DNA of 64,000 nucleotides from Escherichia coli (GCF_001677475.2 NZ_CP012497.1); one strand, 5' to 3'; shown: positions 4,242 through 62,601, counted from the first letter of the stretch. Program-made: numbers and translations. Notes: a model not told the origin generated them from the sequence alone.

Positions 4242-4317
4242 TGGTGGCCCCTACCGGACTTGAACCGGTGACCGTGCGATTATGAGTCGCCAGCTCTAAC
4301 CACTGAGCTAAAGGGCC
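4242..4317 (-). tRNA. trnI: tRNA with CAU anticodon (Ile2/lysidine-type-like, or Met)
   Basis: Reverse complement folds as a cloverleaf GGCCCTT..GCTCAGTGGTTAGAGC..CTCATAA..GGTTCAAGTCCGG..AGGGGCCACCA; close to the E. coli ileX sequence as recalled; CCA encoded. Confidence 0.8.
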
Positions 4318-4428: not shown

Positions 4429-4592
4429 CACTGATCCTTCGAGGCTGGTTTAAATATCGGCCATACCAATGTTACAGCTACTGCTACCAACGCCCCGTCG
4501 GATAAAACCGACAGGATTGTGCTGGTGAAATCCACCAGCACAGATAGCACGAGAAAAACCAAAGCCAGAATTAGACGTGCTTTTATAACCAT
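4428..4592 (-). CDS. small membrane protein (54 aa)
   Basis: Hand-translated MVIKARLILALVFLVLSVLVDFTSTILSVLSDGALVAVAVTLVWPIFKPASKDQ; start overlaps the TerB-like stop (TGATG), suggesting translational coupling. Confidence 0.4.
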   Translation of the reverse strand: MVIKARLILALVFLVLSVLVDFTSTILSVLSDGALVAVAVTLVWPIFKPASKDQ

Positions 4593-5017
4593 CAGATATA
4601 CTGTTCCAGTGGCAATTGAAGAGCCTGGGCAATTTTCTTCAATTGCTCCTGCTCTTCTGCCCCAATGCCATCCTGGTCAGCAATATCAATGCATAGGCAC
4701 AGAACATCTACCGCATCATTAGTTCCAGACACGTCAGCCAGTTCACGTAAAGCCTGGGCATTCGCTCGGCGCGGCGAGGCTTCATATTGAGCGCGAATAT
4801 TGGCGCTCATCTGGGCAATTTCACCGGAGAACGGCGCAAAGGCAGGAAGTGCTGCAATGGTTTTTTCCAATACTGCAATTTCTTTCGCATCGCAGGTGCC
4901 GTCAGAGTATGCAATGGAATATGCGCCCCAGACAGTCGCTTCCACCGCATCACGGTTTTCCATCTTCTTGACTCCGCCAGCCGCTTTGCGGAATTTCTTT
5001 TTGAGAATACCGAGCAT
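4592..5017 (-). CDS. TerB-like protein (P1 Tci-type)
   Basis: 141-aa ORF with TerB-domain character (AYSDGTCDAKEIAVLEKTIAALP, acidic C-terminus); position between the tRNAs and ban matches the P1 tci cluster. Confidence 0.55.
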   Translation of the reverse strand: MLGILKKKFRKAAGGVKKMENRDAVEATVWGAYSIAYSDGTCDAKEIAVLEKTIAALPAFAPFSGEIAQMSANIRAQYEASPRRANAQALRELADVSGTNDAVDVLCLCIDIADQDGIGAEEQEQLKKIAQALQLPLEQYI

Positions 5018-5193
5018 TTATTAACCTCATTACTGGTTGGGAAATAAGGTTGCGGTGCCGGGTGCCTCCCGGTGTCCTTTGGCTGGTTATCCACCGTGGA
5101 CGGGGAAATAAGGAGAAATAATGGACAGATATAACCATTTCCCCGCGTGCGCTTAGCCGCATTCACCGCAACGGAAAGAGCATTCCTGGTGGA

Positions 5194-5944
5194 CCTGTAG
5201 ATTGGGATATGAACCCGTTACAGGAGAATGCTCTTACCTGTTACGTGCTCCGTTTCGTGGAGCTAACGGCGGGTGATCGGGCCGCACCAGACTGGACTTA
5301 TTTCAGCGTTATGCTCATGCCAGAGAATCAAACTGTGATGGTCGGTGCTGAACTCCGACACAGGGTTGTAGCAAGCCCCGCAAAGCGCGCACTACTGTAG
5401 TTGCGGCACATCAGCCTGTGCATTCACCACAATGTTGAGAACACTGGTTGTCACGCTGCAACGCAACATTTATTCGTAGATTGGGATATGACCCCGTTAC
5501 GCCAGTGTTCTCAACGTTGTAGTGCCGGTTACGGTTCCGGCCAGGCCTCTTCCTCAACGGGGTGTTCTCCATACGGACTACCGTTTATTGGTCGTTCCTG
5601 CGGTTTATGTTGTGAAGCCAGATGCTTATCTTCTGGTTGCTTCAAAGAGCTGCACTTCATCACAACGGTAAGAGCACTCGATGCATTTAAGCCAAGCCCC
5701 ATAAGGGAGAATGCCCTTACCTGTTGTGTTGTGATGACCGGTGCTGATCTCCGGCTTGCGGTTATTTCAGACTCTCACGGGCGTTTAATTGCCCCGCCGA
5801 ACAGCTCTTTTCCGCAATAGCTGCAATGTCTTTCGCGCATCAGCCTGCGCATTCATCACAACGGTAAGGGTACTTCGTAGGGATTCGAACCCTCTGCCAA
5901 GCTCGGCGATCTCCGACGTCGCAAAATACCCTTACCTGTTGTGC
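5194..5944. repeat. array of short repeats and tRNA-like remnants
   Basis: Two copies of a 25-bp palindrome-flanked core GTAGATTGGGATATGA(A/C)CCCGTTAC (5194-5224, 5475-5501); motif CCTTACCTGTTGTG/CTTACCTGTTACG at 5225-5250, 5706-5738, 5921-5944 and again at 6365-6390; no convincing ORF. Confidence 0.4.
5868..5931 (-). other. tRNA-like fragment (T-arm and acceptor remnant)
   Basis: Contains GGTTCGAATCC T-loop and a D-arm-like GCGA..TCGC, but does not fold into a complete cloverleaf. Confidence 0.3.
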
Positions 5945-6020
5945 TGGTGCCGATTAACGGACTCGAACCGCTGACATCCTGCTTACAAGGCAGGCGCTCT
6001 ACCAACTGAGCTAAACCGGC
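5945..6020 (-). tRNA. trnT: tRNA-Thr (anticodon UGU)
   Basis: Reverse complement GCCGGTTTAGCTCAGTTGGTAGAGCGCCTGCCTTGTAAGCAGGATGTCAGCGGTTCGAGTCCGTTAATCGGCACCA folds as a canonical cloverleaf, CCA encoded. Confidence 0.85.
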
Positions 6021-6025
6021 ATTGG

Positions 6026-6098
6026 CGATGGTGGATGGATTTGAACCATCGACCCGTTGATTAACAGTCAACCGCTCTAACCGCTGAGCTACACCATC
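6026..6098 (-). tRNA. trnA: tRNA-Asn (anticodon GUU)
   Basis: Reverse complement GATGGTGTAGCTCAGCGGTTAGAGCGGTTGACTGTTAATCAACGGGTCGATGGTTCAAATCCATCCACCATCG folds as a cloverleaf; 5 nt from the tRNA-Thr. Confidence 0.85.
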
Positions 6099-6799: not shown

Positions 6800-9700
6800 C
6801 TACACCTCGAGTGTCCCCTTACAAGACACAGAACGTCTGGCAAAAAGAGGTTCCACTCTGAAGCCACTGTCATGATAAAGCTCTCTGATGTTTGGCGCGC
6901 CACTGTTAGTAATGAGAACCTTTGCACCTCGACGATGAGCATCCGTCAACAGAGACACCAGGCGTTTTTGCTCTTCAAACTTAAAGTCATGACCGGAATA
7001 GTTCGTGAATCCCTCTGTATTTGGAAGCGGTTCATACGGCGGATCGCAAAAGATGACATCTCCTTCTCCGGCAGCTTCAATCACCGCTGCAAAATCACCG
7101 CATACAAACTCAGACCGCCCTTCCGCACCGAGGAAGGCTTCCATCTCCTGTAATGGGAAATACGGAGTTTTATACTTCCCGTAACCGACATTGAACTCAC
7201 CGGCCTGGTTGTAACGCGTCAATCCGTTAAAACAATGTCGGTTCAGGAACAAAAACGCCGCTGCGCGATGTAAATCATCATAGACTTGTTTGTTAAACGC
7301 ATTCCGTACTGCCAGGTATCCTTCCTGTGTGTTGTAGTCCTGGAAGAAACGATGTGCCAGAGTGATAAGTGAATGCGCCTCGCGTTGCAGAGTCTTGTAA
7401 AAGTTAATCAGGTCAGCATTCACATCATTTAGCAGATTTTCCTGGTATCCGGCATTCATGAAGACAGCTCCGCCACCAACGAAAGGTTCAATCAGGCGCT
7501 TCCCTTCTGGCAAATAGCGAAAGATTTGTTCCAGAACACCAAATTTTCCACCAGCCCATTTGAATATGGACCGTTCGAATTCTGCCGCTGGTTTAACTTT
7601 TCGCTCTTTTGTTTCACTTCCTTCTTTCTGCCGACATACGGCCTTAGTAATCCGATCGCCAATCCAGCGCATTACTGGTATTGCCATACTATTGCCGATC
7701 GCTTTGTAACGCGGTCCGTCAGCTGCAAGCATCGCGGCCTCTTCTTCGCTTAAATCTGGATAGTGATTGCGAAGATATGCCAGTTCATCTGAATTAACTT
7801 TTTTACGCTTTTCCGTCGGGATCAACGTATGCCCATCAGGAAAACCTTGCAGCCTTTCACATTCGACAGGGGTAAGACGGCGGACAGCTACTTCTGCGTT
7901 TCTTACTTCATAGCAAACAGCTGTTGGATTTTTAGCCATTAGAGATGGTGAAGTATTCTTAGTTGCAGCATGTTGTGTACCGCTCATACGCTCAGGAAAA
8001 GCCAATGTAACAAGATGCTCATGGCTTTCTTGCTCACGTGCCCGCAATGTACCATGCCCTTCTGACCAAAAACCTGCTCCTGTGCTGCTAAAAACGGCAA
8101 GGTCAGTGGCATCTTTAAAATCTCTTGCCTTTACTGTCGATGCGGTTTCATCGTCAATATATTCCCCAAATGCCGCCATCCTGAAAGCGTTTACGGCTTT
8201 CGTCGATTTCATACCGGGTGGCATGTCAGCGTGTAGGCATGGATTTAGGCTTTCGCCACTGATTGCAGCGCCATTTGCAATAATGGCGGAAGCGATTTCC
8301 TTCTTTTTTCGGCTCGGCGCAATATTCCGGCGCACGCCTTCGAACTCAAAAAGTACCGTTGCGGGATCGAGGTCTGTTCGAGCACTTGCGACAACAAACA
8401 CGCGTCGGCGTCGTTGTGCCACTCCGAAGTATTGGGCATCAAGGATTCTCCAGGCCACCTTTCGCTGCGGTCCATAAATACAACCACACTGCGGCCACTT
8501 TGGAGCATGGCAACCGGTTTTGCCATCCCACCGCCAGAACGCGTTACTTTTTCCTGATTCAGGTCGATCACCTGGTTCAAATGGCGCATCTTCTCCAGCC
8601 AATCCGGCAAGGAAACATCCGAAGGCGTTATCTGCCGATGACAGGACTCCTGGGACATTTTCCCAGACGATAACTGTCGGTTTGAGGAAGGACTCAGACC
8701 GTTTGTCGTCAATTGCATTTGCAAGCTCCACATACTTCAAAGTTAGCGCGCCGCGTTCATCATCAAGCCCACCACGTAAGCCCGCGATACTGAATGCCTG
8801 ACAGTTATGGACCACCGCACCATTGAGGATATAGGAATGATCACCTTCGACTTCTATGTTGTATACAGTATCTAGGCCTACCGATTTAAACTCTTTGACT
8901 GTTCGTAAAAGCATTCCATGAGCCAATCTTGATTTACGTGACAATTTCTGCGGGCAGATTGTTACCTGATAATAATTCCGTTGATTTACCACGCGATCCT
9001 CGATCACTTTTTTGGGCTCAACTTCAATAAAGCTGACCGAAGAAACATAACCACAAGTCTGTGACAACCCCGCAACGCCCCAAGCAAGCGCAGGACTAAC
9101 ACTATTAATTCTAAATCCCGCTTTACCACTTGGTGTCCCATCAGTATCAAGATAGCCTTGTAAAAACACATGACGCAATGGATGCGACATCACCCATGCA
9201 GGGATACGCTTAGCATGGCTTAACTCGCCAAAATGTTCATTAAGCCAATTGGCATAACACGTATCATTCAAGGTTACTTTGATGCTCCCTCGGATTTCGC
9301 TTGCCACGGAAAATATGTTTTCTGGTATGCGGCAATGAAACTTTCTCAATTTCTGGCAATTTATGCCAAAAACAACCGCCTTCTTAGATTTACCTCTCCA
9401 TCTCCTAATATATCCATCGCCAACATAAGCGCCCGCAAGATACATAGCCTGTTCTTCAGACAAGAACCGAGAACAAATATCTGGAGATGCAATATTGAAA
9501 TTAGTTAGAGCGCACCATTGATATCCCGGCATATCACATGCTGCTCGCCATTCCGGTTCAGACAACAACTCTCTCTTAAAATATGTGCCATTTTTCCGGG
9601 TGTTTTGGGCTTTCCACCGAACAGCCAGGAAGGGATGGTCATTGGTTGTTCTTATACCTAAAGGCTGCCCAACGGCATTAAGTAACCCCGTATTAGCTAT

Positions 9701-10056
9701 TTTTGAACCAACTCTTTTTACTTGTTGTAACCGCCCGAGATGACTGACTACGTAATCGCCAGGGCAAACATCTTCTATTGGTTTATAACCATTTTTACAA
9801 AGAACCATATGCCCCGCGGTAAAACATGGTGTTCCCCGACGAGCACGTCAGGGGATTCGATTTCCCCAGCCAAGACTTTTTTGGCAAGTTTTGTCATGTC
9901 GCCAAGGTTGGCGACATGGGGCCAGCGGAGCGCAAGAACGGCAGATGGAAAAGGCTCGATTTCAGCAAACCACGCCGGACGCATACCCAACGGTTCCCAG
10001 GCAATACTCGCGGCTTCAATTCCACTGCAAACAGATCCATAGCACAGCTCTTTCAC
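6800..10056 (-). CDS. dmt: bifunctional DNA methyltransferase (C5-cytosine domain plus Dam-like N6-adenine domain), intein-containing, frame broken near 9834-9837
   Basis: C5-MTase motifs [40 protein letters not shown]; Dam motifs FVGGGAV and DPPY at the C-terminus; GTG start overlaps the hrdC stop; the N-terminal 77 codons are in a different frame, joined across a C-run. Confidence 0.85.
8804..9826 (-). mobile_element. intein with LAGLIDADG homing-endonuclease domain, inserted at the catalytic Cys of the C5-MTase
   Basis: 341-aa insertion starting CFTAGHMVL and ending ILNGAVVHN followed by Cys+1 of CQAFSIAG; LAGLIDADG-like motifs [13 protein letters not shown] and [11 protein letters not shown]. 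Confidence 0.75.
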
Positions 10057-13123: not shown

Positions 13124-13516
13124 ATGTCTGATAAAGTAACAGTAAAGCAAACTATCAACAAAGCGACTTCAATCTACAAAATTGAGCACATCACTGTTGG
13201 CAAGCCAGGATCTGAACAATACCGTCATGCTTTCGAGCTTGCCGATCAGCTTGGTTTAAAACACCCGGATTGCATCGAGCATGTATTTCCGACCTATGCT
13301 GATGAGCAATGTACTCATGTTCTTACCGAAGAGGATTTTTTCAGCACTGAAGAACGAGAAGGCGTTGATCGTTGCATTGGTGTGATTTGCTCTTCAGTGA
13401 GTTATGAGTTATTCCCTAATGTCCATGAAAATGGTGGTATTGGATACCAATTCCTGTACGAAGGCGATGAGCTTAAATGTTATGAACATGGTCTTCTTAT
13501 CGAAAGCGTAGAATAA
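13124..13516 (+). CDS. hypothetical protein
   Basis: 130-aa ORF with a strong context, last gene before oriR. Confidence 0.4.
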   Translation: MSDKVTVKQTINKATSIYKIEHITVGKPGSEQYRHAFELADQLGLKHPDCIEHVFPTYADEQCTHVLTEEDFFSTEEREGVDRCIGVICSSVSYELFPNVHENGGIGYQFLYEGDELKCYEHGLLIESVE

Positions 13517-13549
13517 TACCCTTCCTTCCAACCGGCTATGTTGGCCGGT

Positions 13550-13780
13550 TTTTCACTTATCCACATTATCCACTGGGTAGATCCAATAATTAGGTCCATA
13601 CAGATCCCAATTAGATCCATATAGATCCCTGATCGTTGCAGGCCGCGTCACGTCTGGCTTAGAAGTGTATCGCGATGTGTGCTGGAGGGAAAACGATGTG
13701 TGCTGGAGGGATAAAAATGTGTGCTGACGGGTTGCTAATGTGTGCTGGCGGGATATAGGATGTGTGCTGACGGGAAAGCC
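13550..13780. promoter_or_regulatory. plasmid replication origin oriR (DnaA boxes, GATC cluster, incC iterons)
   Basis: Tandem TTATCCACA/TTATCCACT DnaA boxes at 13557-13576, GATC sites at 13611-13634, then 5 direct 19-bp iterons upstream of repA. Confidence 0.75.
13674..13778 (+). repeat. incC iterons (5 direct repeats, RepA binding sites)
   Basis: Five copies of ATGTGTGCTGGAGGGAAA-like 19-mers at about 21-bp spacing. Confidence 0.85.
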
Positions 13781-13833
13781 TGGGTAGTTATCACCACTAA
13801 TAAAAACTATCCACATAATTCGGAAAAAGTAAT

Positions 13834-14694
13834 ATGAATCAATCATTTATCTCCGATATTCTTTACGCAGACATTGAAAGTAAGGCAAAAGAACTAACAG
13901 TTAATTCAAACAACACTGTGCAGCCTGTAGCGTTGATGCGCTTGGGGGTATTCGTGCCGAAGCCATCAAAGAGCAAAGGAGAAAGTAAAGAGATTGATGC
14001 CACCAAAGCGTTTTCCCAGCTGGAGATAGCTAAAGCCGAGGGTTACGATGATATTAAAATCACTGGTCCTCGACTCGATATGGATACTGATTTCAAAACG
14101 TGGATCGGTGTCATCTACGCGTTCAGCAAATACGGCTTGTCCTCAAACACCATCCAGTTATCGTTTCAGGAATTCGCTAAAGCCTGTGGTTTCCCCTCAA
14201 AACGTCTGGATGCGAAACTGCGTTTAACCATTCATGAATCACTTGGTCGCTTGCGTAACAAGGGTATCGCCTTTAAGCGCGGAAAAGATGCTAAAGGCGG
14301 CTATCAGACTGGTCTGCTGAAGGTCGGGCGTTTTGATGCTGACCTTGATCTGATAGAGCTGGAGGCTGATTCGAAGCTGTGGGAGCTGTTCCAGCTTGAT
14401 TATCGCGTTCTGTTGCAACACCACGCCTTGCGTGCCCTTCCGAAGAAAGAAGCTGCACAAGCCATTTACACTTTCATCGAAAGCCTTCCGCAGAACCCGT
14501 TGCCCCTATCGTTCGCGCGAATCCGTGAGCGCTTGGCTTTGCAGTCAGCTGTTGGCGAGCAAAACCGTATCATTAAGAAAGCGATAGAACAGCTTAAAAC
14601 AATCGGCTATCTCGACTGTTCAATTGAGAAGAAAGGCCGGGAAAGTTTTGTAATCGTCCATTCTCGCAATCCAAAGCTGAAACTTCCCGAATAA
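13834..14694 (+). CDS. repA: plasmid replication initiator RepA (P1 type)
   Basis: 286-aa ORF flanked by iteron arrays on both sides, the classic P1 R-replicon layout. Confidence 0.9.
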   Translation: MNQSFISDILYADIESKAKELTVNSNNTVQPVALMRLGVFVPKPSKSKGESKEIDATKAFSQLEIAKAEGYDDIKITGPRLDMDTDFKTWIGVIYAFSKYGLSSNTIQLSFQEFAKACGFPSKRLDAKLRLTIHESLGRLRNKGIAFKRGKDAKGGYQTGLLKVGRFDADLDLIELEADSKLWELFQLDYRVLLQHHALRALPKKEAAQAIYTFIESLPQNPLPLSFARIRERLALQSAVGEQNRIIKKAIEQLKTIGYLDCSIEKKGRESFVIVHSRNPKLKLPE

Positions 14695-14979
14695 GTGTGT
14701 GCTGGAGGGAAGCTGCATTAAAAAAATGTGTGCTGACGGGAAGGCTTGTCCAATTTCCTGTTTTTGATGTGCGCTGGAGGGGGACGCCCCGCAGTTTGCC
14801 CAGACTTTCCCTCCAGCACACATCTGTCCATCCGTTTTTCCCTCCAGTGCACATGTAATTCTCTGCCTTTCCCTCCAGCACACATATTTGATACCAGCGA
14901 TCCCTCCACAGCACATAATTCAATGCGACTTCCCTCTATCGCACATTCTGGTCCTGCATCATCCCTCCAGCACACATCT
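14693..14979. repeat. incA iterons (9 repeats, 3 direct and 6 inverted)
   Basis: TGTGTGCTGGAGGG-type 19-mers at 14693, 14725, 14765 (direct) and CCCTCCAGCACACAT-type at 14809, 14840, 14871, 14902, 14932, 14962 (inverted). Confidence 0.85.
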
Positions 14980-15087
14980 AATAGCCTCATCGCCATTTCT
15001 TTACGTGCAATAATTGACGCACGAATCAAAAAAAGTTGCACGTAGCAGAATCAAACGTACAATTCACTCATACGAAATGATAAGGAG

Positions 15088-16299
15088 ATGATGATGAAAC
15101 GCGATTACGGCGGTGTTGGCACCATAGCTCTTCGTGCAAGCGCATTACTTAAGGCCATGAGTCAGGATATTGAAGATCAGCGCAAAGAGTTCAATCAGAC
15201 CGAGTATTATCAGACGTTCACTCGTAACGCTGTGGCAAAGTTGCCGAAGCTGAGCCGCCGCATTGTGGAGCAGGCCATCAAAGAGATGGAAGATGATGGG
15301 TACCAGTTCAACAAGAAACAGGTCGGTAACGTTGAACAGTACGCGCTGACCATCCAGAACGTCATTGATATCTATGCCCACCGTAAGATCCCCAAATATC
15401 GCGACATTCACAAATCGCCTTACGTTATTTTTGTCGTAAACCTGAAGGGTGGCGTATCCAAAACGGTTTCCACAGTTACGTTGGCGCACGCTCTGCGTGT
15501 GCATCAGGATTTACTGCGTCACGATCTGCGCATTCTGGTAATTGACCTTGACCCTCAGGCATCCAGCACAATGTTCCTCGACCATACTCACAGTATTGGT
15601 TCCATCCTGGAAACCGCCGCGCAGGCGATGCTGAACGACCTGGACGCGGAGACGCTACGCAAAGAGGTGATTCGTCCGACCATCGTTCCTGGCGTAGACG
15701 TGATTCCAGCCTCTATCGACGATGGCTTTGTTGCCAGCCAATGGAAAGAGCTGGTTGAAGAGCATCTTCCCGGACAAAATCAGTACGAAATCCTTCGACG
15801 CAATATCATTGATCGTGTTGCGGATGATTATGACTTTATCTTTATTGATACCGGTCCACACCTGGATCCGTTCCTGCTCAACGGTCTGGCGGCCAGCGAT
15901 TTGCTGCTTACCCCTACCCCACCAGCCCAGGTTGACTTCCACTCAACACTGAAATATCTCACCCGTCTGCCAGAAATGCTGGAGCAACTGGAGGAGGAAG
16001 GCGTAGAACCGCGTTTGAGCGCCAGCATTGGTTTTATGTCGAAGATGACCGGCAAGCGCGATCACGAGACATCACACAGCCTTGCGCGTGAGGTTTACGC
16101 CAGCAACATTCTGGACTCTTCTCTGCCTCGTCTGGATGGCTTTGAGCGATGCGGCGAGTCTTTCGACACCGTAATCAGTGCCAACCCGCAATCGTATCCA
16201 GGCAGTGCAGAGGCGCTGAAGAAGGCACGAACCGAGGCCGAGCGTTTCACTAAGGCTGTGTTTGATCGAATTGAGTTTGTTAGGGGTGAGGCGGCATGA
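15088..16299 (+). CDS. parA: plasmid partition ATPase ParA (P1 type)
   Basis: Deviant Walker A NLKGGVSKTVSTVTLAHA and long N-terminal DNA-binding extension; colinear with P1 ParA as recalled. Confidence 0.9.
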   Translation: MMMKRDYGGVGTIALRASALLKAMSQDIEDQRKEFNQTEYYQTFTRNAVAKLPKLSRRIVEQAIKEMEDDGYQFNKKQVGNVEQYALTIQNVIDIYAHRKIPKYRDIHKSPYVIFVVNLKGGVSKTVSTVTLAHALRVHQDLLRHDLRILVIDLDPQASSTMFLDHTHSIGSILETAAQAMLNDLDAETLRKEVIRPTIVPGVDVIPASIDDGFVASQWKELVEEHLPGQNQYEILRRNIIDRVADDYDFIFIDTGPHLDPFLLNGLAASDLLLTPTPPAQVDFHSTLKYLTRLPEMLEQLEEEGVEPRLSASIGFMSKMTGKRDHETSHSLAREVYASNILDSSLPRLDGFERCGESFDTVISANPQSYPGSAEALKKARTEAERFTKAVFDRIEFVRGEAA

Positions 16300-17261
16300 A
16301 AAAAATAGTTTCCCGTGGACGAGTGCTGGGCAAGAATAGCTCCGAGTTTGCTCGCATGCTTGAAGGCAGTGAAGGCACCAAAACCTTTACCCTAAAATCT
16401 GGCCGCCAGGCTAAATTTTTGCTTACCGTTGTGCTGAGTGGTGAGATTGAGTCGCGCACGTTCGTTGACCCGGCAGTTAACGGCCGCGATCAGTCTCTGC
16501 TCACCCCTGAGTCGGTAAGCGATATTTCCCGCACCATTAAATTGCAACAGTTCTTCCCGGCTATCGGTCGTATGGTTGGGGAGCGCATTGAGGTATTGGA
16601 CGGATCACGTCGCCGCGCTGCGTGTATCTTCAATGAAACGAAATTTGAGATTCTGGTGACGAAAGATGAGATCAGCCTGGCAGATGCCCGCCAGCTGGCC
16701 ATTGATATCCAGACAGCCCGCGAACACACTCTGCGCGAGCTGGGTAAACGCTTCGAGGTTATGTACGGTAAGAATATGACCAAAGAAGAGATCGCCCGAG
16801 CTGAGAACATCTCAAAGGCTAAAGTGACGCGAGCTTTCCAGGCTGCCGCGGTGCCGGATGAGATGATTGCTGTCTTCCCTGTTGCCAGCGATCTCGCCCT
16901 GCCAGATTACCAGTTACTGCTCCAGATCGCCGAGGATGCTAACGCTAAAAGCGTGCCGATTGAAGAGCTGGTTGATACGGTGCGCGAACGAATTGCAGAG
17001 ACTGAGGGCGCGAAAGAGGATAAATCGAAGATACTGGCTATCTTCAAAGCGGAAAGCAAAAGCCTGAAGCCCGCGCCGGTTAAATCTGTGGTGATTGAGA
17101 AGCTGCGAGACTTCTCTGACCGTCGTCAATACGCCAGAAAGAAGTCCGATCCGAAAAAACGGGTAGTCGCCTACGAGTTCTCCAGACTCCCGTCTGAAGT
17201 GCAAACTGAAATTGACGAAGCAATAAAAAAAATCATTGGGAAAATGTCTGCTGGGGAATAA
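16296..17261 (+). CDS. parB: plasmid partition protein ParB (P1 type)
   Basis: Start overlaps the parA stop; ParB/Spo0J-like core (LDGSRRRAA, HTH region); colinear with P1 ParB as recalled. Confidence 0.9.
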   Translation: MKKIVSRGRVLGKNSSEFARMLEGSEGTKTFTLKSGRQAKFLLTVVLSGEIESRTFVDPAVNGRDQSLLTPESVSDISRTIKLQQFFPAIGRMVGERIEVLDGSRRRAACIFNETKFEILVTKDEISLADARQLAIDIQTAREHTLRELGKRFEVMYGKNMTKEEIARAENISKAKVTRAFQAAAVPDEMIAVFPVASDLALPDYQLLLQIAEDANAKSVPIEELVDTVRERIAETEGAKEDKSKILAIFKAESKSLKPAPVKSVVIEKLRDFSDRRQYARKKSDPKKRVVAYEFSRLPSEVQTEIDEAIKKIIGKMSAGE

Positions 17262-17304
17262 TCCCGCTGGTGGGAGGTGGTTTTAGCCTCCTCCCCTGCC
17301 TAAA

Positions 17305-17410
17305 ATGTCCTGCGCCAATTTCATTGATAACATTATGATTTAAATATATTTTTTAGAAAAATTTCAGACTGAAATTCCCACGATTTAACGCCTGCTTTCA
17401 CCGTCCACTT
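17305..17410. promoter_or_regulatory. candidate parS centromere
   Basis: Downstream of parB: boxB-like GCGCCA next to boxA-like ATTTCAT, an AT-rich possible IHF region, then TTTCACC. Confidence 0.4.
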
Positions 17411-17505
17411 CCCCGCATAAAAAATTTAAAAAATTACTTTTCGCGAGAAAGTCAACAAGTGACTTTCAATAAAATCTCTTCCGAAAAGGGATTCACACAA
17501 GTGCC

Positions 17506-19233
17506 TTGTGTTTAAGGAAGAGTAACTTGAGTAACTTACGCGAATACCAGAATCGTATTGCAGATATCGCAAAACGCTCTAAAGCCGTTCTTGGCTGGGC
17601 AAGTGCAGCACAGTTCGGTACTGATAACCAATTCATCAAAGATGATGCCGCGCGTGCCGCATCTATCCTTGAAGCTGCACGCAAAGACCCGATTTTTGCG
17701 GGTATCTCTGATAATGCCACCGCTCAAATCGCTACAGCGTGGGCAAGTGCACTGGCTGACTACGCCGCAGCACATAAATCTATGCCGCGTCCGGAAATTC
17801 TGGCCTCCTGCCACCAGACGCTGGAAAACTGCCTGATTGAGTCCACCCGCAATAGCATGGATGCCACTAATAAAGCGATGCTGGAATCCGTCGCAGCAGA
17901 GATGATGAGCGTTTCTGACGGTGTTATGCGTCTGCCTTTATTCCTCGCGATGATCCTGCCTGTTCAGTTGGGGGCAGCTACCGCTGATGCGTGTACCTTC
18001 ATTCCGGTTACGCGTGACCAGTCCGACATCTATGAAGTCTTTAACGTGGCAGGTTCCTCTTTTGGTTCTTATGCTGCTGGTGATGTTCTGGACATGCAAT
18101 CCGTCGGTGTGTACAGCCAGTTACGCCGCCGCTATGTGCTGGTGGCAAGCTCCGATGGCACCAGCAAAACCGCAACCTTCAAGATGGAAGACTTCGAAGG
18201 CCAGAATGTACCAATCCGAAAAGGTCGCACTAACATCTACGTTAACCGTATTAAGTCTGTTGTTGATAACGGTTCCGGCAGCCTACTTCACTCGTTTACT
18301 AATGCTGCTGGTGAGCAAATCACTGTTACTTGCTCTCTGAACTACAACATTGGTCAGATTGCCCTGTCGTTCTCCAAAGCGCCGGATAAAGGCACTGAGA
18401 TCGCAATTGAGACGGAAATCAATATTGAAGCCGCTCCTGAGCTGATCCCGCTGATCAACCACGAAATGAAGAAATACACCCTGTTCCCAAGCCAGTTCGT
18501 TATCGCGGCTGAGCACACGGTACAGGCGGCGTATGAAGCACAGCGTGAATTTGGTCTGGACCTGGGTTCCCTACAGTTCCGCACCCTGAAGGAATACCTG
18601 TCTCATGAACAGGATATGCTGCGTCTTCGCATCATGATCTGGCGCACTCTTGCGACCGACACCTTTGACATCGCTCTGCCGGTTAACCAGTCCTTTGATG
18701 TATGGGCAACCATCATTCGTGGCAAATTCCAGACTGTATATCGCGACATTATTGAGCGCGTTAAATCTTCTGGTGCGATGGGGATGTTTGCTGGTGCTGA
18801 TGCAGCATCTTTCTTCAAACAGTTGCCGAAGGATTTCTTCCAGCCAGCCGAAGACTATATCCAGACTCCGTATGTTCACTACATCGGTACCCTGTTCGGT
18901 AACGTGAAAGTGTACGAAGTACCTGCTGGTATTTGTAAGAACTTAACGACAGAGAACATTCAGTTCAGCTCGATGGATGTGCTGTGCTACGTCCGTGATG
19001 AAAATCCGGGTAAAGCAGGCTTCGTGACTGGTGATGCTGTCCCGGCCATCCCGTTCCAGCATCCGACCACTCCGGCGCTGGTCAACCGTACCACGCTGTG
19101 GGGTTCGGCTATCAACGATATGCACCCACGCAACGGCGCTGATTACTTCACTCGTGTAACGCTGACAATGGCCAAAAAAGGCGGGCTTAACTTCATAAGC
19201 GGCGACACGATTGATGCCGGTGACTCTGAGTAA
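17506..19233 (+). CDS. major capsid-like virion protein (position of P1 gene 23)
   Basis: 575-aa ORF directly after parS, as in the P1 parS-23-22-21 order; start may be the TTG at 17527 behind an AAGGAAG RBS. Confidence 0.5.
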   Translation: MCLRKSNLSNLREYQNRIADIAKRSKAVLGWASAAQFGTDNQFIKDDAARAASILEAARKDPIFAGISDNATAQIATAWASALADYAAAHKSMPRPEILASCHQTLENCLIESTRNSMDATNKAMLESVAAEMMSVSDGVMRLPLFLAMILPVQLGAATADACTFIPVTRDQSDIYEVFNVAGSSFGSYAAGDVLDMQSVGVYSQLRRRYVLVASSDGTSKTATFKMEDFEGQNVPIRKGRTNIYVNRIKSVVDNGSGSLLHSFTNAAGEQITVTCSLNYNIGQIALSFSKAPDKGTEIAIETEINIEAAPELIPLINHEMKKYTLFPSQFVIAAEHTVQAAYEAQREFGLDLGSLQFRTLKEYLSHEQDMLRLRIMIWRTLATDTFDIALPVNQSFDVWATIIRGKFQTVYRDIIERVKSSGAMGMFAGADAASFFKQLPKDFFQPAEDYIQTPYVHYIGTLFGNVKVYEVPAGICKNLTTENIQFSSMDVLCYVRDENPGKAGFVTGDAVPAIPFQHPTTPALVNRTTLWGSAINDMHPRNGADYFTRVTLTMAKKGGLNFISGDTIDAGDSE

Positions 19234-26568: not shown

Positions 26569-27612
26569 TTAACCTATTGCTACTGGTTTTAACAAACCAG
26601 CATCAAGTAGCTTGCGAGTTAACCACTGCTGGCCTTTACCCGTTAATTGGGGCGTCAGCCGTATCTGGTAGCCATTTTCATCATCCAGCACCACTTCTTT
26701 CACCGTGAAATACCCGGCATTAATGTATTGCTGGCGCGGTACGTTTTTGCGCTCACCAAAAGCCATGAGAATGCCGCTCTGGCGCAACCATGAGAAAAGG
26801 GCGTTTTGCTTAAGTCCAACGACCTTTGCAAAGTTCCCGATCAGGATTCCATTGGCCACTGATACCCGGTCGGCAAAATCGACTTTAGGGGCTGCGGCCA
26901 CCAGCTGTTGTTCCAACTGCATTTTCTGTTCTGCCAACTCGGCAGCCAGGCGTAGAGCTTCTGGTAATGTTTGGGGGATCGATGGGGCAGGGGAGTTTGC
27001 CTGCTGCAATTCTTCCAGTTTGTCGATCAGCGAACGGCGGACCGCTTTTGACTCGCGCGCGGCAACTCGCAGGGCTTGTTTGTAGGTCATGGTTATGACA
27101 ACCATAGGCGTACCGCCACCTGGCGGCACGGTTGCACTTTTTGTGTAACCGTCCTCACCTTCTAATTCGTCGAGTATTTTTTCGATGAATTTATTGTTTC
27201 TAACCAATGGTTCTCCACATAACTTGCGTGCCTCATTGACCATCTTCAACAATGTTTGGCTGTCGATTGTGTCTCCGGTGTTGGGGATGACATTCACGGC
27301 TGGTGCTGGCGTAGCTGAAGCAACAGGTGCTGGTTTTTCAACATTCAAATTATTACCGGTCATTCTATGTGCCTCCTTTCTCATTTCTGCTGCCACTGTT
27401 GCGTAACGTAGACGTCCTTGTTCAATCAAATAATCCCTGATCTCGGCTATCAGTAGCCTGTTGATCACAGCCTTATCTATCCGGGTATAAAAACGCTTGG
27501 TTATCATGAAATAGTTGGCAATTGCGCCGGGGATCTCCCGTGTCGGCATACAGGCAGTATGCAGGGCGATCGCTTCGGCTATTTCATTCCGGGTGACGAG
27601 AGGTTTTTTCAT
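26569..27612 (-). CDS. ant: antirepressor Ant-like protein
   Basis: 347-aa ORF whose C-terminal domain (LPEALRLAAELAEQK..GILIGNFAKVVGL..) is paralogous to the KilA C-terminus; start overlaps the icd stop. Confidence 0.7.
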   Translation of the reverse strand: MKKPLVTRNEIAEAIALHTACMPTREIPGAIANYFMITKRFYTRIDKAVINRLLIAEIRDYLIEQGRLRYATVAAEMRKEAHRMTGNNLNVEKPAPVASATPAPAVNVIPNTGDTIDSQTLLKMVNEARKLCGEPLVRNNKFIEKILDELEGEDGYTKSATVPPGGGTPMVVITMTYKQALRVAARESKAVRRSLIDKLEELQQANSPAPSIPQTLPEALRLAAELAEQKMQLEQQLVAAAPKVDFADRVSVANGILIGNFAKVVGLKQNALFSWLRQSGILMAFGERKNVPRQQYINAGYFTVKEVVLDDENGYQIRLTPQLTGKGQQWLTRKLLDAGLLKPVAIG

Positions 27613-27830
27613 AAACCCCCCTGAACGTCGGCAGAGAAGGGGAGGTTCCAGTAACTAAGTGAATTGCGCGAGTTAGTTGAAAAACGGGCAGTAAAAATGC
27701 AGGGGCCATCAGGCAATTGAGAGCGTGCTTCGTCTTCTGTTGCTGCGATAACGAAGTGATAGTGGTGTTTTTGGCAGGAGTAAAAGCGCCAGATAAATTC
27801 AGGATGAGTAGGGGTAGGGATAGTAGCCAC
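27609..27830 (-). CDS. icd: Icd-like small protein
   Basis: 73-aa ORF overlapping the ant start (ATGA), same size and position as P1 icd. Confidence 0.5.
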   Translation of the reverse strand: MATIPTPTHPEFIWRFYSCQKHHYHFVIAATEDEARSQLPDGPCIFTARFSTNSRNSLSYWNLPFSADVQGGL

Positions 27831-28163
27831 AATGGCAGCCTCCTTTTGCTAATTTAAGGAGCTACCGCGTGAGGTTCCAATCTCAATGGCGGTAGCACTG
27901 ACTGGGTTGGAACTACCGGCGCAAAAGGGAACCGGCCTGCCTTTCGGCAGCCCAGCCAGCACTACCATTGATCTCGGAGCTATGTGCTACGTATGGCTGT
28001 GCGATGGCATGACACAAAAAAAGACGCTTTTGGCGTCTGTGTCGCCTTTTGCATTATCCGGGGTTCCAATCCCGGCATCCATTTTACTAAGATGCCTGTT
28101 TAGGATAAACCGAAAATGCATTAGCACGCAAGCAAGTTAATGTAGCATATGAAGCTAAAAAAA

Positions 28164-28180
28164 TAAAATAATTAGAGCAA
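28164..28180. promoter_or_regulatory. C1 operator-like site (P1 Op51-like) upstream of the icd-ant leader
   Basis: Reverse complement contains TTGCTCTAATTATT, partial consensus match in an AT-rich region. Confidence 0.4.
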
Positions 28181-28327
28181 CTTGTAACCATGTAAATTAT
28201 TTCCCTGGTAACTAAAATGTATGAGTTTAATTGATATGGGTCAAAGATTTTGACCATTGCATGGTGAAACTTTATGCTACAAAATGTTATTTTAAGGCGT
28301 TTTATCTGTGGCAGGAGATAGTTAATC

Positions 28328-28678
28328 ATGTCATCTGAACATGTTCGTAAAGGTGTAACAAATGCGAAATTCAATGAAGAGCAATCTAATATTCTCTTTA
28401 TTGAAATAGGAATTCTGTCAATACTGATAGGTTTAATGTCTAAATCATGGTGGGCCTTTGGCGGTTCTTTTCTTGGACTGATTTTTAGTTTAAGAATAAA
28501 ATTTCTGGCAATACCATTGATGATTGTATTTAGCTTAGTATGGGGAGCTATTGGCTATAGTATTGGTACTTTGTTTGAATCAACAGCAGCAAGTATTGTT
28601 TTGGGGGTAATTGCTTTCCTGAGTGGTTTGGGTACTCATTTTGCTGCCGTGCAATGGGCAAATGATATTGCAGAATAA
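28328..28678 (+). CDS. small polytopic membrane protein (about 4 TM helices)
   Basis: 116-aa ORF with four hydrophobic segments; low GC; first gene of a 3-gene + strand island. Confidence 0.5.
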   Translation: MSSEHVRKGVTNAKFNEEQSNILFIEIGILSILIGLMSKSWWAFGGSFLGLIFSLRIKFLAIPLMIVFSLVWGAIGYSIGTLFESTAASIVLGVIAFLSGLGTHFAAVQWANDIAE

Positions 28679-28700
28679 TTACAGATAAGAAGCGAAAAGA

Positions 28701-29177
28701 ATGAATATGAGATGGTTTTTATTATTTGTATCGTTAGTTTCAGCAGGAACATTTGCAAAAATTGATCCTCTACAATGGAATGTAATTGAAGAGAGAGGGG
28801 GGAGAGAATATACAATCCATAATCATAATGGTGATAAGATAAGTTTTTTATGTGATATGGGATTCATGTATGGTTCACCAGATAGTGCAGGTAGTTTAGG
28901 CTTGTTGCTAAGTTCGTCGAATAATAAAAAAGAGTATAATGCTGACAAGAATAAAATAGTATTAACTATAGATGGTGAGCAATATCCTTTTAGCAATCTT
29001 GGATCAATGGTTGGAGATTCTTGGTGGTATGCCTTTTGGCAAGATGCAGCAGATTCAAATGCTAATATGATTGATGCTTATGTTGATAATGAAAAAATTG
29101 CTACATTCCCTCTTTCTGGGCTAAGTAAGTTGTATCAACAAGCCAAAATGGATGGATGTATTAAACGAGGCAAATGA
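28701..29177 (+). CDS. secreted periplasmic protein
   Basis: 158-aa ORF with signal peptide MNMRWFLLFVSLVSAGTFA; Trp/Tyr-rich; low GC. Confidence 0.5.
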   Translation: MNMRWFLLFVSLVSAGTFAKIDPLQWNVIEERGGREYTIHNHNGDKISFLCDMGFMYGSPDSAGSLGLLLSSSNNKKEYNADKNKIVLTIDGEQYPFSNLGSMVGDSWWYAFWQDAADSNANMIDAYVDNEKIATFPLSGLSKLYQQAKMDGCIKRGK

Positions 29178-29218
29178 TCTTTCTGTGTTAAAGATTAACG
29201 CAATCAATAAAACATTGG

Positions 29219-30286
29219 TTGCGTAATATTCTATTATATAAATGGAATAATATGACAAAAATTACTAATTCTAATGAGTTGAAGTTACTGTATAAACAGT
29301 CAGTGCTCATTCCATCATACAAAGATCACGTAGCGATCTTGCAAAAACAATTAGGAATAGAAAAACATTCTTTTCAAAATATGACAAGATTGAATAGACA
29401 AGCTGTAATTAGTAACTCTCTTCGAAAACAATTGGCTAGTATGCCGAACTTGGCTGGAATAGGCAGCAAGTATCGTGAACATATCGCGATTTTACAGAAA
29501 CAGACTCAGGCTCTTTTCCCTCATGACGCAAATAGATATATTCAAATGCTAAGGAAACAGGCCGAAATAGCTATGCCATTACGAAAACAGCTTGAGGTGC
29601 TTAATAAGCAAGCTGGTTTAAATAACATGCAAGCGATACTTAAAGAATTACAACAAAGTGCAAGTTATAAAACAGATGTAAGCCAAGACATAAAGAAAGT
29701 ACTAGATCACTATGCTAGAACAAGAAATGCTTCATTACATCAAATAATAGAGCAGGGGATTTCATCTATTGCGCAGGCTTATGCTGAAGGTGCTACTGAA
29801 ACATCACACACCAAAAGTAATGTTCAAAATAAAGGATTAAATAAACCTAGCTCAAAGTTTGTTGATTCATTTAAAGAGCTTCCTTATCCACTGCAATGGT
29901 TACTAATGGTTATATTTTCTCAAGTTGTGTTTGGTGCTTTTATTGATTACGGAAAAGAGAAAACCTTGCTGGGAATACACAAGGCAGAATCATATTTTAT
30001 ATCTCTGTTTGAGGATAAACCAATATCAAAACAACAATTAATTAAAGAAAACAAAGAAATTAGTTGGGAAGATCTCAATGGTTTTCGTTTTATAACTGGT
30101 GAGAACGTAAGATTACACGTCAGTCCTTCTATAAATAGTGAGGTGATTGAATGCATTGGCAAAAATACTATAGTGGCTGTTTTAGATAAAAAAGATCGCC
30201 AATGGCTTTTCGTGCAGGTTAAATCAGGGGACGAGTTTATTACTGGATGGATTACACGAACATACACAAAGCCTCTTAAGGCTTGA
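29219..30286 (+). CDS. membrane-anchored coiled-coil protein with C-terminal SH3b-like domain
   Basis: 355-aa ORF with tandem helical repeats (HVAILQKQ, HIAILQKQ, LRKQ), one TM helix (LQWLLMVIFSQVVFGAFIDYG) and an SH3b-like C-terminus (GENVRLHVSPS..IVAVLDKKDRQWLFVQVKSGDEFITGWI); low GC. Confidence 0.5.
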   Translation: MRNILLYKWNNMTKITNSNELKLLYKQSVLIPSYKDHVAILQKQLGIEKHSFQNMTRLNRQAVISNSLRKQLASMPNLAGIGSKYREHIAILQKQTQALFPHDANRYIQMLRKQAEIAMPLRKQLEVLNKQAGLNNMQAILKELQQSASYKTDVSQDIKKVLDHYARTRNASLHQIIEQGISSIAQAYAEGATETSHTKSNVQNKGLNKPSSKFVDSFKELPYPLQWLLMVIFSQVVFGAFIDYGKEKTLLGIHKAESYFISLFEDKPISKQQLIKENKEISWEDLNGFRFITGENVRLHVSPSINSEVIECIGKNTIVAVLDKKDRQWLFVQVKSGDEFITGWITRTYTKPLKA

Positions 30287-30415
30287 ATTTTATCACCGTA
30301 TCTTGGGGCTGGGTGTTGATGACGATGTGCTACTTGAAGTACTTGGGTTTTTTAACGCAGCATCTGAAATGTGTAGACTGACCGGTAACAAATGACAACT
30401 CGTAGAATCGGGTAA

Positions 30416-30772
<357 letters not shown>

Positions 30773-30849: not shown

Positions 30850-31587
30850 TCACTTCGGGTATGGCTGAATCCTGAATAGCTTAGTATTTAGTCGCTTTTT
30901 TGCGCGCTTGTTCAGGAATCTGATGTAGCGATACTGATTAAATTTGTGTACCACCGCCCGCTCCTTATTAGCCCGCAAATACTCGCCTCGTTGTCCTCCA
31001 CGCTTAATCGCGTTCATCGTTATCTCGTGATACCACTCGCCGTCCAGCTCGTAGAACGTGCTTTCATGGCTACCAATAAAATCAAAATTAGATGCCTGAT
31101 ACACAACACCTGCACGTCCGCAGCGTTCGTCTGCAAAGGACTGAACCCACTCCACTGATGGATACAGTAACCTGATGGTTTTCAGTGCGTAGCTGATAGC
31201 CCGTGATTCAGAGTTGCGGGGCATGTCGTCGTGTAACCACATGCGGTTCAGTTCCATATAGCCCCGGTTATCCGTTTCCAGCACGACCCGACGCCCTGAG
31301 TTGGGATTAAGGGCGTATCCCCACTGGAGAACGCCAACCAGATCACGTCCGCTGAATACCCCCAGATGCAACCAGGAGTTATTCACAAAACGGCGGGAAT
31401 AGTGCTTTGTCTGAATGATTGTGCGGGCCAGCCAGCAGGATATGGTTTCAACGCGCAGTTCCCTTGAACCATAGCCGACAATACGGCCTTCATACTCAAT
31501 AACGCAGGGTTTTGTAAGGATGCGTGATTTCTTCTCTTTTCCCACAATACAGCTCCGTGGGATGCTCCCGGGCACTCGACATGACAA
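30850..31587 (-). CDS. mom: Mom-like DNA modification protein
   Basis: ORF directly downstream of and overlapping a Com homologue, the Mu com-mom arrangement; true start probably downstream of 31587. Confidence 0.7.
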
Positions 31588-61647: not shown

Positions 61648-62601
61648 TTACTGCCAGTTCAGCAACTTAGGGTTGCTGTAAGCCTCCTTAAAAGCCGCTT
61701 TTATGTGACTTTTATTCAGGGATGAACCAGCACCTTTCGCCGCCAGCCACGCATGATTCAGTGTGTGAGTTAATACACGCAATCCCCCGGGCTTTTCGGC
61801 AACCCTCATCAGCAGATCCAGCTCATCTTCCTGTGTTACTCCCCATGCTTTGGCTACAGCCATCACATCAGTCTTTTTCACTTTGCGCAGTTGTTTTGTC
61901 ATGGCAAAACGGCTGAACAAACGAGCCAGTTCATCAGTCCCACGACGGGTGGCATCCGCCATCTGTTTCGGGTTGCCAATTAAAACCATCCCCACGCCAG
62001 TAGCATCCTGAATGGCGCGTAATTGCTCCAGACCATCCACACTTAAGTGATCAGCTTCATCAATAATCAGCAGGGGGTTAACACGGCCACTGGTTTCTTT
62101 ACCACCGCCCAGTTTTCTGCGAATGGCGCGGGTTATATTCCCCTTATTTCTTCCCGGATTATTAATTTCCAGCGCATATGCTATTTCAAGGAGGCATTCC
62201 GTTACGCTCGAATGTGCCGGTGCAAGCGTCACCATCCAGGCATTAGCTGTCTTGCGGCAATATTCCCGTGCAGCAAAAGTTTTGCCGACACCCGGTACGC
62301 CAACAACAACACTGATAATCCCGAGTGAGCGCACTGTTTTAAACAGCTCATGCAAATCACAAAATGTCTGGGTCTTCACAACGCCGGGGGCACCTGACAA
62401 ATTCTGCCCTTTTTGCCAGACCCGATACCATTCCTGTAATTTGTCATGCATACCTTCGACATTGCCTTTGTATTCTCCTTTACGCAGAGCCGAGAGTGTT
62501 GCCGGAGACATTCCGGCCTCATCAGCAATATCTTCCTGGGGCTTGTCGCCCTCGTTGATCAACGTATTAATAGTGTTGAAAACATCATCAATATCAGTCA
62601 T
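61648..62601 (-). CDS. B: transposition ATPase B (Mu B-like)
   Basis: 317 aa, colinear with Mu B as recalled (Walker A GVPGVGKT, IIDEADHL, ARLFSR). Confidence 0.85.
   Translation of the reverse strand: MTDIDDVFNTINTLINEGDKPQEDIADEAGMSPATLSALRKGEYKGNVEGMHDKLQEWYRVWQKGQNLSGAPGVVKTQTFCDLHELFKTVRSLGIISVVVGVPGVGKTFAAREYCRKTANAWMVTLAPAHSSVTECLLEIAYALEINNPGRNKGNITRAIRRKLGGGKETSGRVNPLLIIDEADHLSVDGLEQLRAIQDATGVGMVLIGNPKQMADATRRGTDELARLFSRFAMTKQLRKVKKTDVMAVAKAWGVTQEDELDLLMRVAEKPGGLRVLTHTLNHAWLAAKGAGSSLNKSHIKAAFKEAYSNPKLLNWQ

Follow-up and report, generated by a model that had tools for sequence, protein, structure and literature searches.

We have analysed a stretch of 64,000 nucleotides of Escherichia coli DNA (GCF_001677475.2, NZ_CP012497.1), which we call the window and in which all feature coordinates below are counted, and have found in it the replication and partition region of an element related to the phages P1 and P7. 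Because of the segment-wise identities to P7 and P1 and the correspondence of the iterons, we regard this region as very probably the maintenance module of a phage-plasmid of the P1 group (Punavirus), in which the IncY 'R' replicon common to P1 and P7 is followed by a partition operon of P7 specificity. An earlier note, written from the sequence alone, had described positions 13550–17410 as a complete P1-type plasmid maintenance cassette. We have read positions 13200–18200 directly and listed the open reading frames (ORFs), and the span does enclose the whole replication and partition module. The word 'complete' holds for replication and partition, but not beyond them, as the other maintenance functions of P1, cre/lox and phd/doc, are found in parts of the P7 map that the window does not include. 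Similarly, 'P1-type' is right for the anatomy, for the P1-group plasmid-prophage family and for the R replicon, but the partition half is of the P7 species.

The comparison with phage records divides the module clearly into two halves. In a megablast search with positions 13500–17500, P7 (AF503408.1) is matched over the full length at 97.9% identity, and so is a record labelled 'Escherichia phage P1' (OP279344.1), at 98.3%. On the other hand, the reference P1 (NC_005856.1), together with AF234172/3 and K02380, is aligned only over query positions 1–1482, at 97.6%. That is, the alignment to the P1 R replicon which had been suggested as a check succeeds for the rep half and stops at the end of incA. 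Older records of P7 par (X17529) and P7 rep (J03308) are matched too. In P7 (AF503408.1 / NC_050152.1, 61.5–65.5 kb), the 4-kb module is collinear with that of the window, and the 14 iterons, the 4-bp overlap of parA and parB, and an inverted repeat in the spacer before parA are in common. P1 (NC_005856.1, 58.9–62.9 kb) has oriR (97.1% identical), incC, repA and incA in common with the window, and it also shares the layout of rep, parA-parB-parS and then gene 23. Actually, the cassette as such is already known: every feature of it is annotated in AF503408.1, and it is among the best-studied plasmid maintenance systems.

The iterons, which are the binding sites of the initiator RepA, have been searched in the whole window with the 19-bp consensus GATGTGTGCTGGAGGGAAA, allowing at most 3 mismatches, and dinucleotide-preserving shuffles have been used as the control. 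Ten matches are found, all of them between 13674 and 14978, while 0.03 matches are expected by shuffling and the number of ten is reached in none of the 100 shuffles. The cluster is thus far beyond chance. If four more-diverged copies are counted as well, the total becomes 14, and all 14 align with the annotated P1/P7 copies 14 to 1 in position and orientation, most of them being identical in every base. Compared with P7, three bases differ, which are located in copies 13, 9 and 8.

The left part of the replicon is the origin oriR, for which the earlier note had listed two tandem DnaA boxes, a cluster of GATC sites and five direct 19-bp iterons ahead of repA; all of these have been recovered. 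The DnaA boxes, TTATCCACA at 13557–13565 and TTATCCACT at 13566–13574 on the plus strand, form the left edge of oriR and lie where P1 and P7 carry the DnaA protein_bind annotation. They are followed by five GATC (Dam) sites at 13580, 13603, 13614, 13624 and 13631 (13580–13634 as a whole), which are annotated in P1/P7 as Dam sites 5 to 1. These sites are contained in AT-rich repeats of the AGATCC type in the opening region of oriR, and the stretch is nearly base-for-base the same as in the origins of P1 and P7. The incC locus (13674–13777, plus strand) then supplies five RepA iterons at 13674, 13695, 13716, 13737 and 13759, with a spacing of 21–22 bp. They match the annotated copies 14 to 10 one to one, and each of them is either exactly a P1 or P7 copy or one base off. 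A third site resembling a DnaA box, CTATCCACA at 13807–13815 on the plus strand, is located between incC and repA and is conserved in P1 and P7.

The annotation of P1 allows the repA promoter to be placed by homology within incC, with the −35 hexamer TTGCTA at 13732–13737 and the −10 hexamer TAGGAT at 13756–13761. A sigma-70 scan has called neither the repA promoter (PrepA) nor the par promoter (Ppar), and has yielded fewer promoter-like sites than the shuffled sequences. Since the scan missed these two, promoter positions are given here by homology to P1 or only as candidates. Just upstream of the origin and after a upfA homolog, a consensus scan has returned a terminator-like hairpin on the plus strand (13530–13550; AACCGGC...GCCGGTT followed by a run of T), which may serve as a terminator.

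The gene repA (13834–14694, plus strand) encodes a 286-residue iteron-binding replication initiator. At the protein level it agrees completely with the RepA of P1 and that of P7 (100% identity), and the DNA is 98.3% identical to that of P7 and 99.1% identical to that of P1. The Pfam family Rep3_N is hit with 25.7 bits, just over its cut-off of 22.4. Behind repA, the incA copy-control locus (14694–14978) contains nine iterons, three direct and six inverted, in the P1 incC/incA layout that had been claimed and in agreement with the P1/P7 annotation. Copies 9 to 7 are on the plus strand (14694, 14725 and 14766) and copies 6 to 1 on the minus strand (14806, 14837, 14868, 14899, 14928 and 14960). 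The identity of incA is 99.0% to P7 and 94.4% to P1. Overall, the replication half belongs to the P1/P7 R replicon, i.e., the IncY iteron replicon, by every sequence feature of it. Judging from the identity to this characterised replicon, the module should be capable of autonomous low-copy replication dependent on RepA, DnaA and Dam.

The partition half begins with parA (15088–16299, plus strand), whose product is a partition ATPase of type Ia with a helix-turn-helix at the N-terminus and the deviant Walker A motif KGGVSKT. The Pfam domains HTH_54 (E=3.8e-37) and AAA_31 (E=8.1e-24) are both found in it. Three consecutive ATG codons open the gene, and the third of them, at 15094, lies 6 nt past AAGGAG (15082–15087). 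The third ATG is likely the start, giving a protein of 401 residues, the length at which RefSeq annotates identical proteins. The ParA of P7 is matched at 100% identity and that of P1 at 57%. The overlap of parA and parB that had been noticed earlier is confirmed, with 4 bp (ATGA) shared between the stop of parA and the start of parB; as P1 has 16 bp between the two genes, this overlap is a trait of P7.

The product of parB (16296–17261, plus strand) is a centromere-binding protein of 321 residues with the Pfam domain ParB (PF08775, E=9.9e-33). It has 317 of the 321 residues in common with P7 ParB (98.8%), the changes at positions 160, 212, 244 and 267 being conservative, and residues 268–321 are the same as in P7. 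The identity to P1 ParB is 40%. The public collection has 781 blocks in which exactly this protein is encoded. Considering that the repA, parA and parB ORFs are all intact and that their products are identical or nearly identical to characterised proteins, a decayed relic can be ruled out.

The spacer between incA and parA agrees with P7 at 107 of 109 positions. It is 108 bp long, against 273 bp in P1, and the two are unalignable. Within it, TACGTGCAA at 15002–15010 and TTGCACGTA at 15036–15044 form a perfect inverted repeat of 9 bp, which may represent a par operator of the P7 type. Together with a possible −10 element TACAAT at 15058–15063, this repeat makes up a candidate par promoter/operator region on the plus strand (15002–15063). 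The par operators of P1 and P7 are said to have been found dissimilar by Hayes et al. in 1994.

Downstream of parB, where a centromere with boxA- and boxB-like motifs had been suspected, we have located parS at 17307–17389 on the plus strand. The left part is composed of boxB1 GTCCTG (17307–17312), boxA1 ATTTCAT (17318–17324) and the core TAACATTATGATT (17328–17340) of a site for the integration host factor (IHF). The right part is composed of boxA2 ATTTCAG (17361–17367), boxA3 CTGAAAT (17369–17375), boxB2 TTCCCA (17375–17380) and boxA4 ATTTAAC (17383–17389). The order of the elements is hence B-A-IHF-A-A-B-A, an architecture also shared by P1, and all seven stand at the spacing of the annotated P7 parS. 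When compared by hand on the reverse strand, the IHF core has one mismatch to WATCAANNNNTTR, which we take to be the consensus.

In P7, the corresponding elements read boxB1 GTCCCG, boxA1 ATTTCAT, IHF site TAAATATATGATA, boxA2 ATTTCAG, boxA3 CTGAAAT, boxB2 TTCCCA and boxA4 GTTTCAC. Boxes A1, A2, A3 and B2 of the window are therefore the same as in P7, while boxB1, the sequence of the IHF loop and boxA4 are changed. The boxB of P1 is TCGCCA, different from the boxB2 that the window has in common with P7. According to PMC10999674 (citing Dabrazhynetskaya 2005 and 2009), ParB binding requires only A2-A3-B2, and boxB, chiefly B2, is the discriminator of species specificity and partition incompatibility. 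As boxB2 and A2-A3-B2 are those of P7, the partition specificity here should on this basis be that of P7. Taken together, the domains, the operon, the order of parS, boxB2 and the C-terminal region of ParB all agree with the P7 species of the P1par family (type Ia ParABS). The P1 species of this family does not agree with boxB2 TTCCCA, with boxB1 GTCCTG, or with the low identities of ParA (57%) and ParB (40%).

The module is widely distributed in IncY plasmids. In PLSDB, 224 plasmids carry at least 80% of it at 95–99% identity, and every relative that we have inspected is typed IncY. For instance, the IncY phage-plasmids p64EVA-6 (CP138405.1), E. coli H15 plasmid A (CP010179.1), LT882487.1 and pCrono684-2 (CP080596.1) match the module over the full length at 97.8–98.5%. 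No identical record of the module is found in the phage, PLSDB or complete E. coli collections, where the best match is 98.5%. The element can thus be typed as IncY with a P7-type partition system.

The surroundings of the module bear on the state of the element. Positions 1–30723 of the window are collinear with P7 from 77634 down to 49143, with a few indels and an identity of about 97%, and when the whole window is mapped onto P7, no match to it is obtained beyond 30723. The P1-like DNA ends at 30722–30724 within a tubA homolog, of which codons 1–94 of 188 remain (30440–30723). From there to the end of the window, a transposable, Mu-like prophage takes up the sequence, with a GC content of about 0.57 as against about 0.47 in the P1-like DNA. 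This prophage encodes Mom (30850–31587, minus strand; Pfam Mom, E=1.3e-75) and a MuB-like ATPase (61648–62601, minus strand), as well as tail fibre, baseplate, tape measure, sheath, portal and terminase proteins, and a MuA-like gene runs off the window end. The other end of the prophage is expected about 1.9 kb beyond the last position of the window (64000).

The prophage end at the junction, TATAAAGCGCGCAAAATTATTCAAGATA..., is also present in E. coli RM9088, where it adjoins nrfB in the chromosome. Because of this, the junction is taken as a genuine transposon terminus and not as a mis-join. An assembly chimera at 30.7 kb is unlikely, considering that the breakpoint coincides with the RM9088 prophage terminus within a shared TA and lies outside any sequence common to P1 and Mu-type phages. 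The junction between the two parts has not been found in phage records, PLSDB or 5,426 complete E. coli genomes. We slightly favour the view that the window comes from a natural P1/P7-like phage-plasmid with a complete Mu-like prophage in tubA, which would persist only through its IncY/P7par cassette or else as a plasmid-chromosome cointegrate. If this is true, the composite would be about 130 kb in size and tail-defective, so it would no longer spread as a P1 virion; a composite of that size presumably also exceeds the P1 headful. If, in addition, the Mu-like element has acted replicatively, the result would be a cointegrate with a second, iteron-controlled origin.

Three observations weigh against a phage-plasmid module of P7 specificity. 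In the sequence comparison, parS stands out as the one part diverged from P7, by boxB1 (GTCCCG to GTCCTG), boxA4 and the IHF loop; the P1-like backbone of the element is interrupted by the Mu-like prophage at 30722–30724; and an intact copy of the cassette is present in one E. coli chromosome. The divergence of parS could be taken to mean that the window represents a new partition-specificity subtype within P7par. Indeed, the parS region is 82.9% identical to P7 and about 50% to P1, although the flanking genes are 98–100% identical to those of P7, and the single-base variant boxB1 GTCCTG is seen in none of the 15 P7-type relatives compared. Across all of these 15, however, the A2-A3-B2 core is invariant, as is A1, and this core is sufficient for ParB binding and specificity according to PMC10999674 (citing Dabrazhynetskaya 2005). 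The P7-type parS in fact occurs in at least two natural alleles, which differ in the IHF-loop sequence and boxA4 (17325–17360 and 17383–17389; loci L005–L008 and L014–L023). The second one, that of the window, is common to the IncY plasmids CP010179 (E. coli), LT882487 (S. Typhi) and CP080596 (Cronobacter), and the parS of contigs L015 and L023 is one base off that of the window. An identical ParB is encoded beside both alleles, with a P7-like core in L014, L018 and L019 and a window-like core in L015 and L023. Conversely, the ParB variant of P7 itself (WP_000725192, P7-like at the four variable positions) adjoins the second allele in CP010179. A co-variation of the parS allele with ParB substitutions is thereby ruled out. 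Since the allele does not track ParB, the loop, boxA4 and boxB1 are better seen as tolerant positions than as signs of a new specificity, and ParB from residue 268 on is the same as in P7. We therefore consider a new subtype very improbable. Even less credible is a canonical P1 cassette, with P1 rep and P1 par, which would take the label 'P1-type' literally. The rep half at 97.6% and the complete identity of RepA would agree with it, and so would the full-length match of the P1-labelled OP279344.1; as this very match shows, the P1 label is loosely applied to phages with this type of par. Against this, the alignment of NC_005856 ends with incA, the spacer before parA is unalignable, and ParA, ParB and boxB2 (TTCCCA versus TCGCCA) are not those of P1, so that this possibility is refuted at the sequence level.

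The other two observations concern the state of the element. The earlier note had concluded from the cassette that the element is maintained as a low-copy plasmid prophage and is not integrated in the chromosome. This does not follow, since the P1-like DNA stops at a Mu-like terminus and the cassette also exists in a chromosome. In E. coli 1008S13 (CP147053.1, 899–903 kb; loci L010 / L017), an intact repA-parA-parB cassette with an identical ParB is located between dusA and zur, where IS26, IS1 and IS5 surround it and gene 23 is truncated. Hence it is conceivable that the cassette here is intact but that the element is not a free plasmid, being fused to the chromosome, e.g., as a cointegrate from Mu-like replicative transposition or through IS elements; in that case, the R replicon would be carried along as a passenger, or would act as a secondary origin. 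Besides the chromosomal copy in 1008S13, such a fusion is favoured by the fact that the P1-like DNA ends exactly at the Mu-like terminus with the second junction outside the window, by the almost invariably chromosomal location of the Mu-like prophage family (511 of 532 matching places), and by PLSDB, in which no plasmid is matched by more than a 3.7-kb P1-like part of positions 27000–51000. On the other hand, no chromosomal gene is seen across the 64-kb window, the module is carried by plasmids at 1239 of its 1262 places in complete E. coli genomes, and the same junction is expected if a Mu-like phage simply inserted itself into a resident plasmid upon infection, which for Mu is the commoner outcome. 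Overall, we judge chromosome fusion unlikely, and consider a Mu-like phage simply inserted in a plasmid much likelier than a cointegrate or an integrated element. The cassette means a capacity for plasmid maintenance; the plasmid state is likelier, but is not proven by the cassette, because the module is also known from a chromosome, and because the junction with a transposable phage is 13 kb away here.

Going back to the P1/P7-type module itself, we can outline how it would work from the established biology of P1 and P7, to which the window is linked by the correspondence of sequence. RepA would bind the five incC iterons of oriR, and host DnaA at the tandem boxes, together with the Dam-methylated GATC repeats, would let the origin open so that theta replication can start. 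As the repA promoter lies in incC, RepA is expected to repress its own synthesis through that promoter. The nine incA iterons would titrate RepA and pair with the origin ('handcuffing'), by which the copy number may be held near one per chromosome. For partition, ParB and host IHF, the latter bending the centre of parS, would build a partition complex on the boxA and boxB motifs. The ParA ATPase would then place the ParB-parS complexes on either side of the division plane, and would also repress the par promoter. Since RepA and the iterons are of the P1/P7 type, IncY replicon incompatibility with both phages is predicted; since boxB2 and ParB are of the P7 type, partition incompatibility is predicted with P7-type but not with P1-type plasmids. 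The natural polymorphism of parS also indicates where the centromere tolerates change, as the loop, boxA4 and boxB1 vary while A1 and A2-A3-B2 do not.

In the rest of the P1-like part, positions 4563–5408, 5743–5924 and 7883–8311 have no P7 counterpart at blastn sensitivity, and are mosaic differences from P7. In addition, the dmt homolog (Dam/C5 methyltransferase; 6800–10056, minus strand) has an insertion of about 343 residues with a LAGLIDADG domain. The insertion starts with CFTAGH and ends with VVHN|C at the PC motif of the C5-methylase, which fits an intein. Near 9835, three codons before this putative intein, a G run is one G shorter than in the uninterrupted 1095-residue ORF of contig L023. 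The missing G throws the N-extein out of frame; this difference may be genuine or may have arisen in sequencing.

Positions 27801–30387, which separate the c4/icd immunity region from the tubA homolog, are without a P7 counterpart and have a low GC content (34.5% over 28–30 kb). The segment is present at 98–99% identity in other P1-like plasmids, e.g., CP099272.1, where the annotated products of its genes are an SH3-domain protein and hypothetical proteins. It appears to be a variable accessory slot, which is held by the sim genes in P1. The C4 antisense RNA of the P1/P7 immI region is located at 27885–27972 on the minus strand (Rfam, 76.7 bits), and adjoining it, also on the minus strand, is a member of the isrK small RNA family at 28017–28095 (58.9 bits), both above the gathering score. 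Finally, three transfer RNA genes (4245–4317, 5948–6020 and, on the minus strand, 6026–6098), likewise above the gathering score in Rfam, correspond to the tRNA cluster of P1 and P7.

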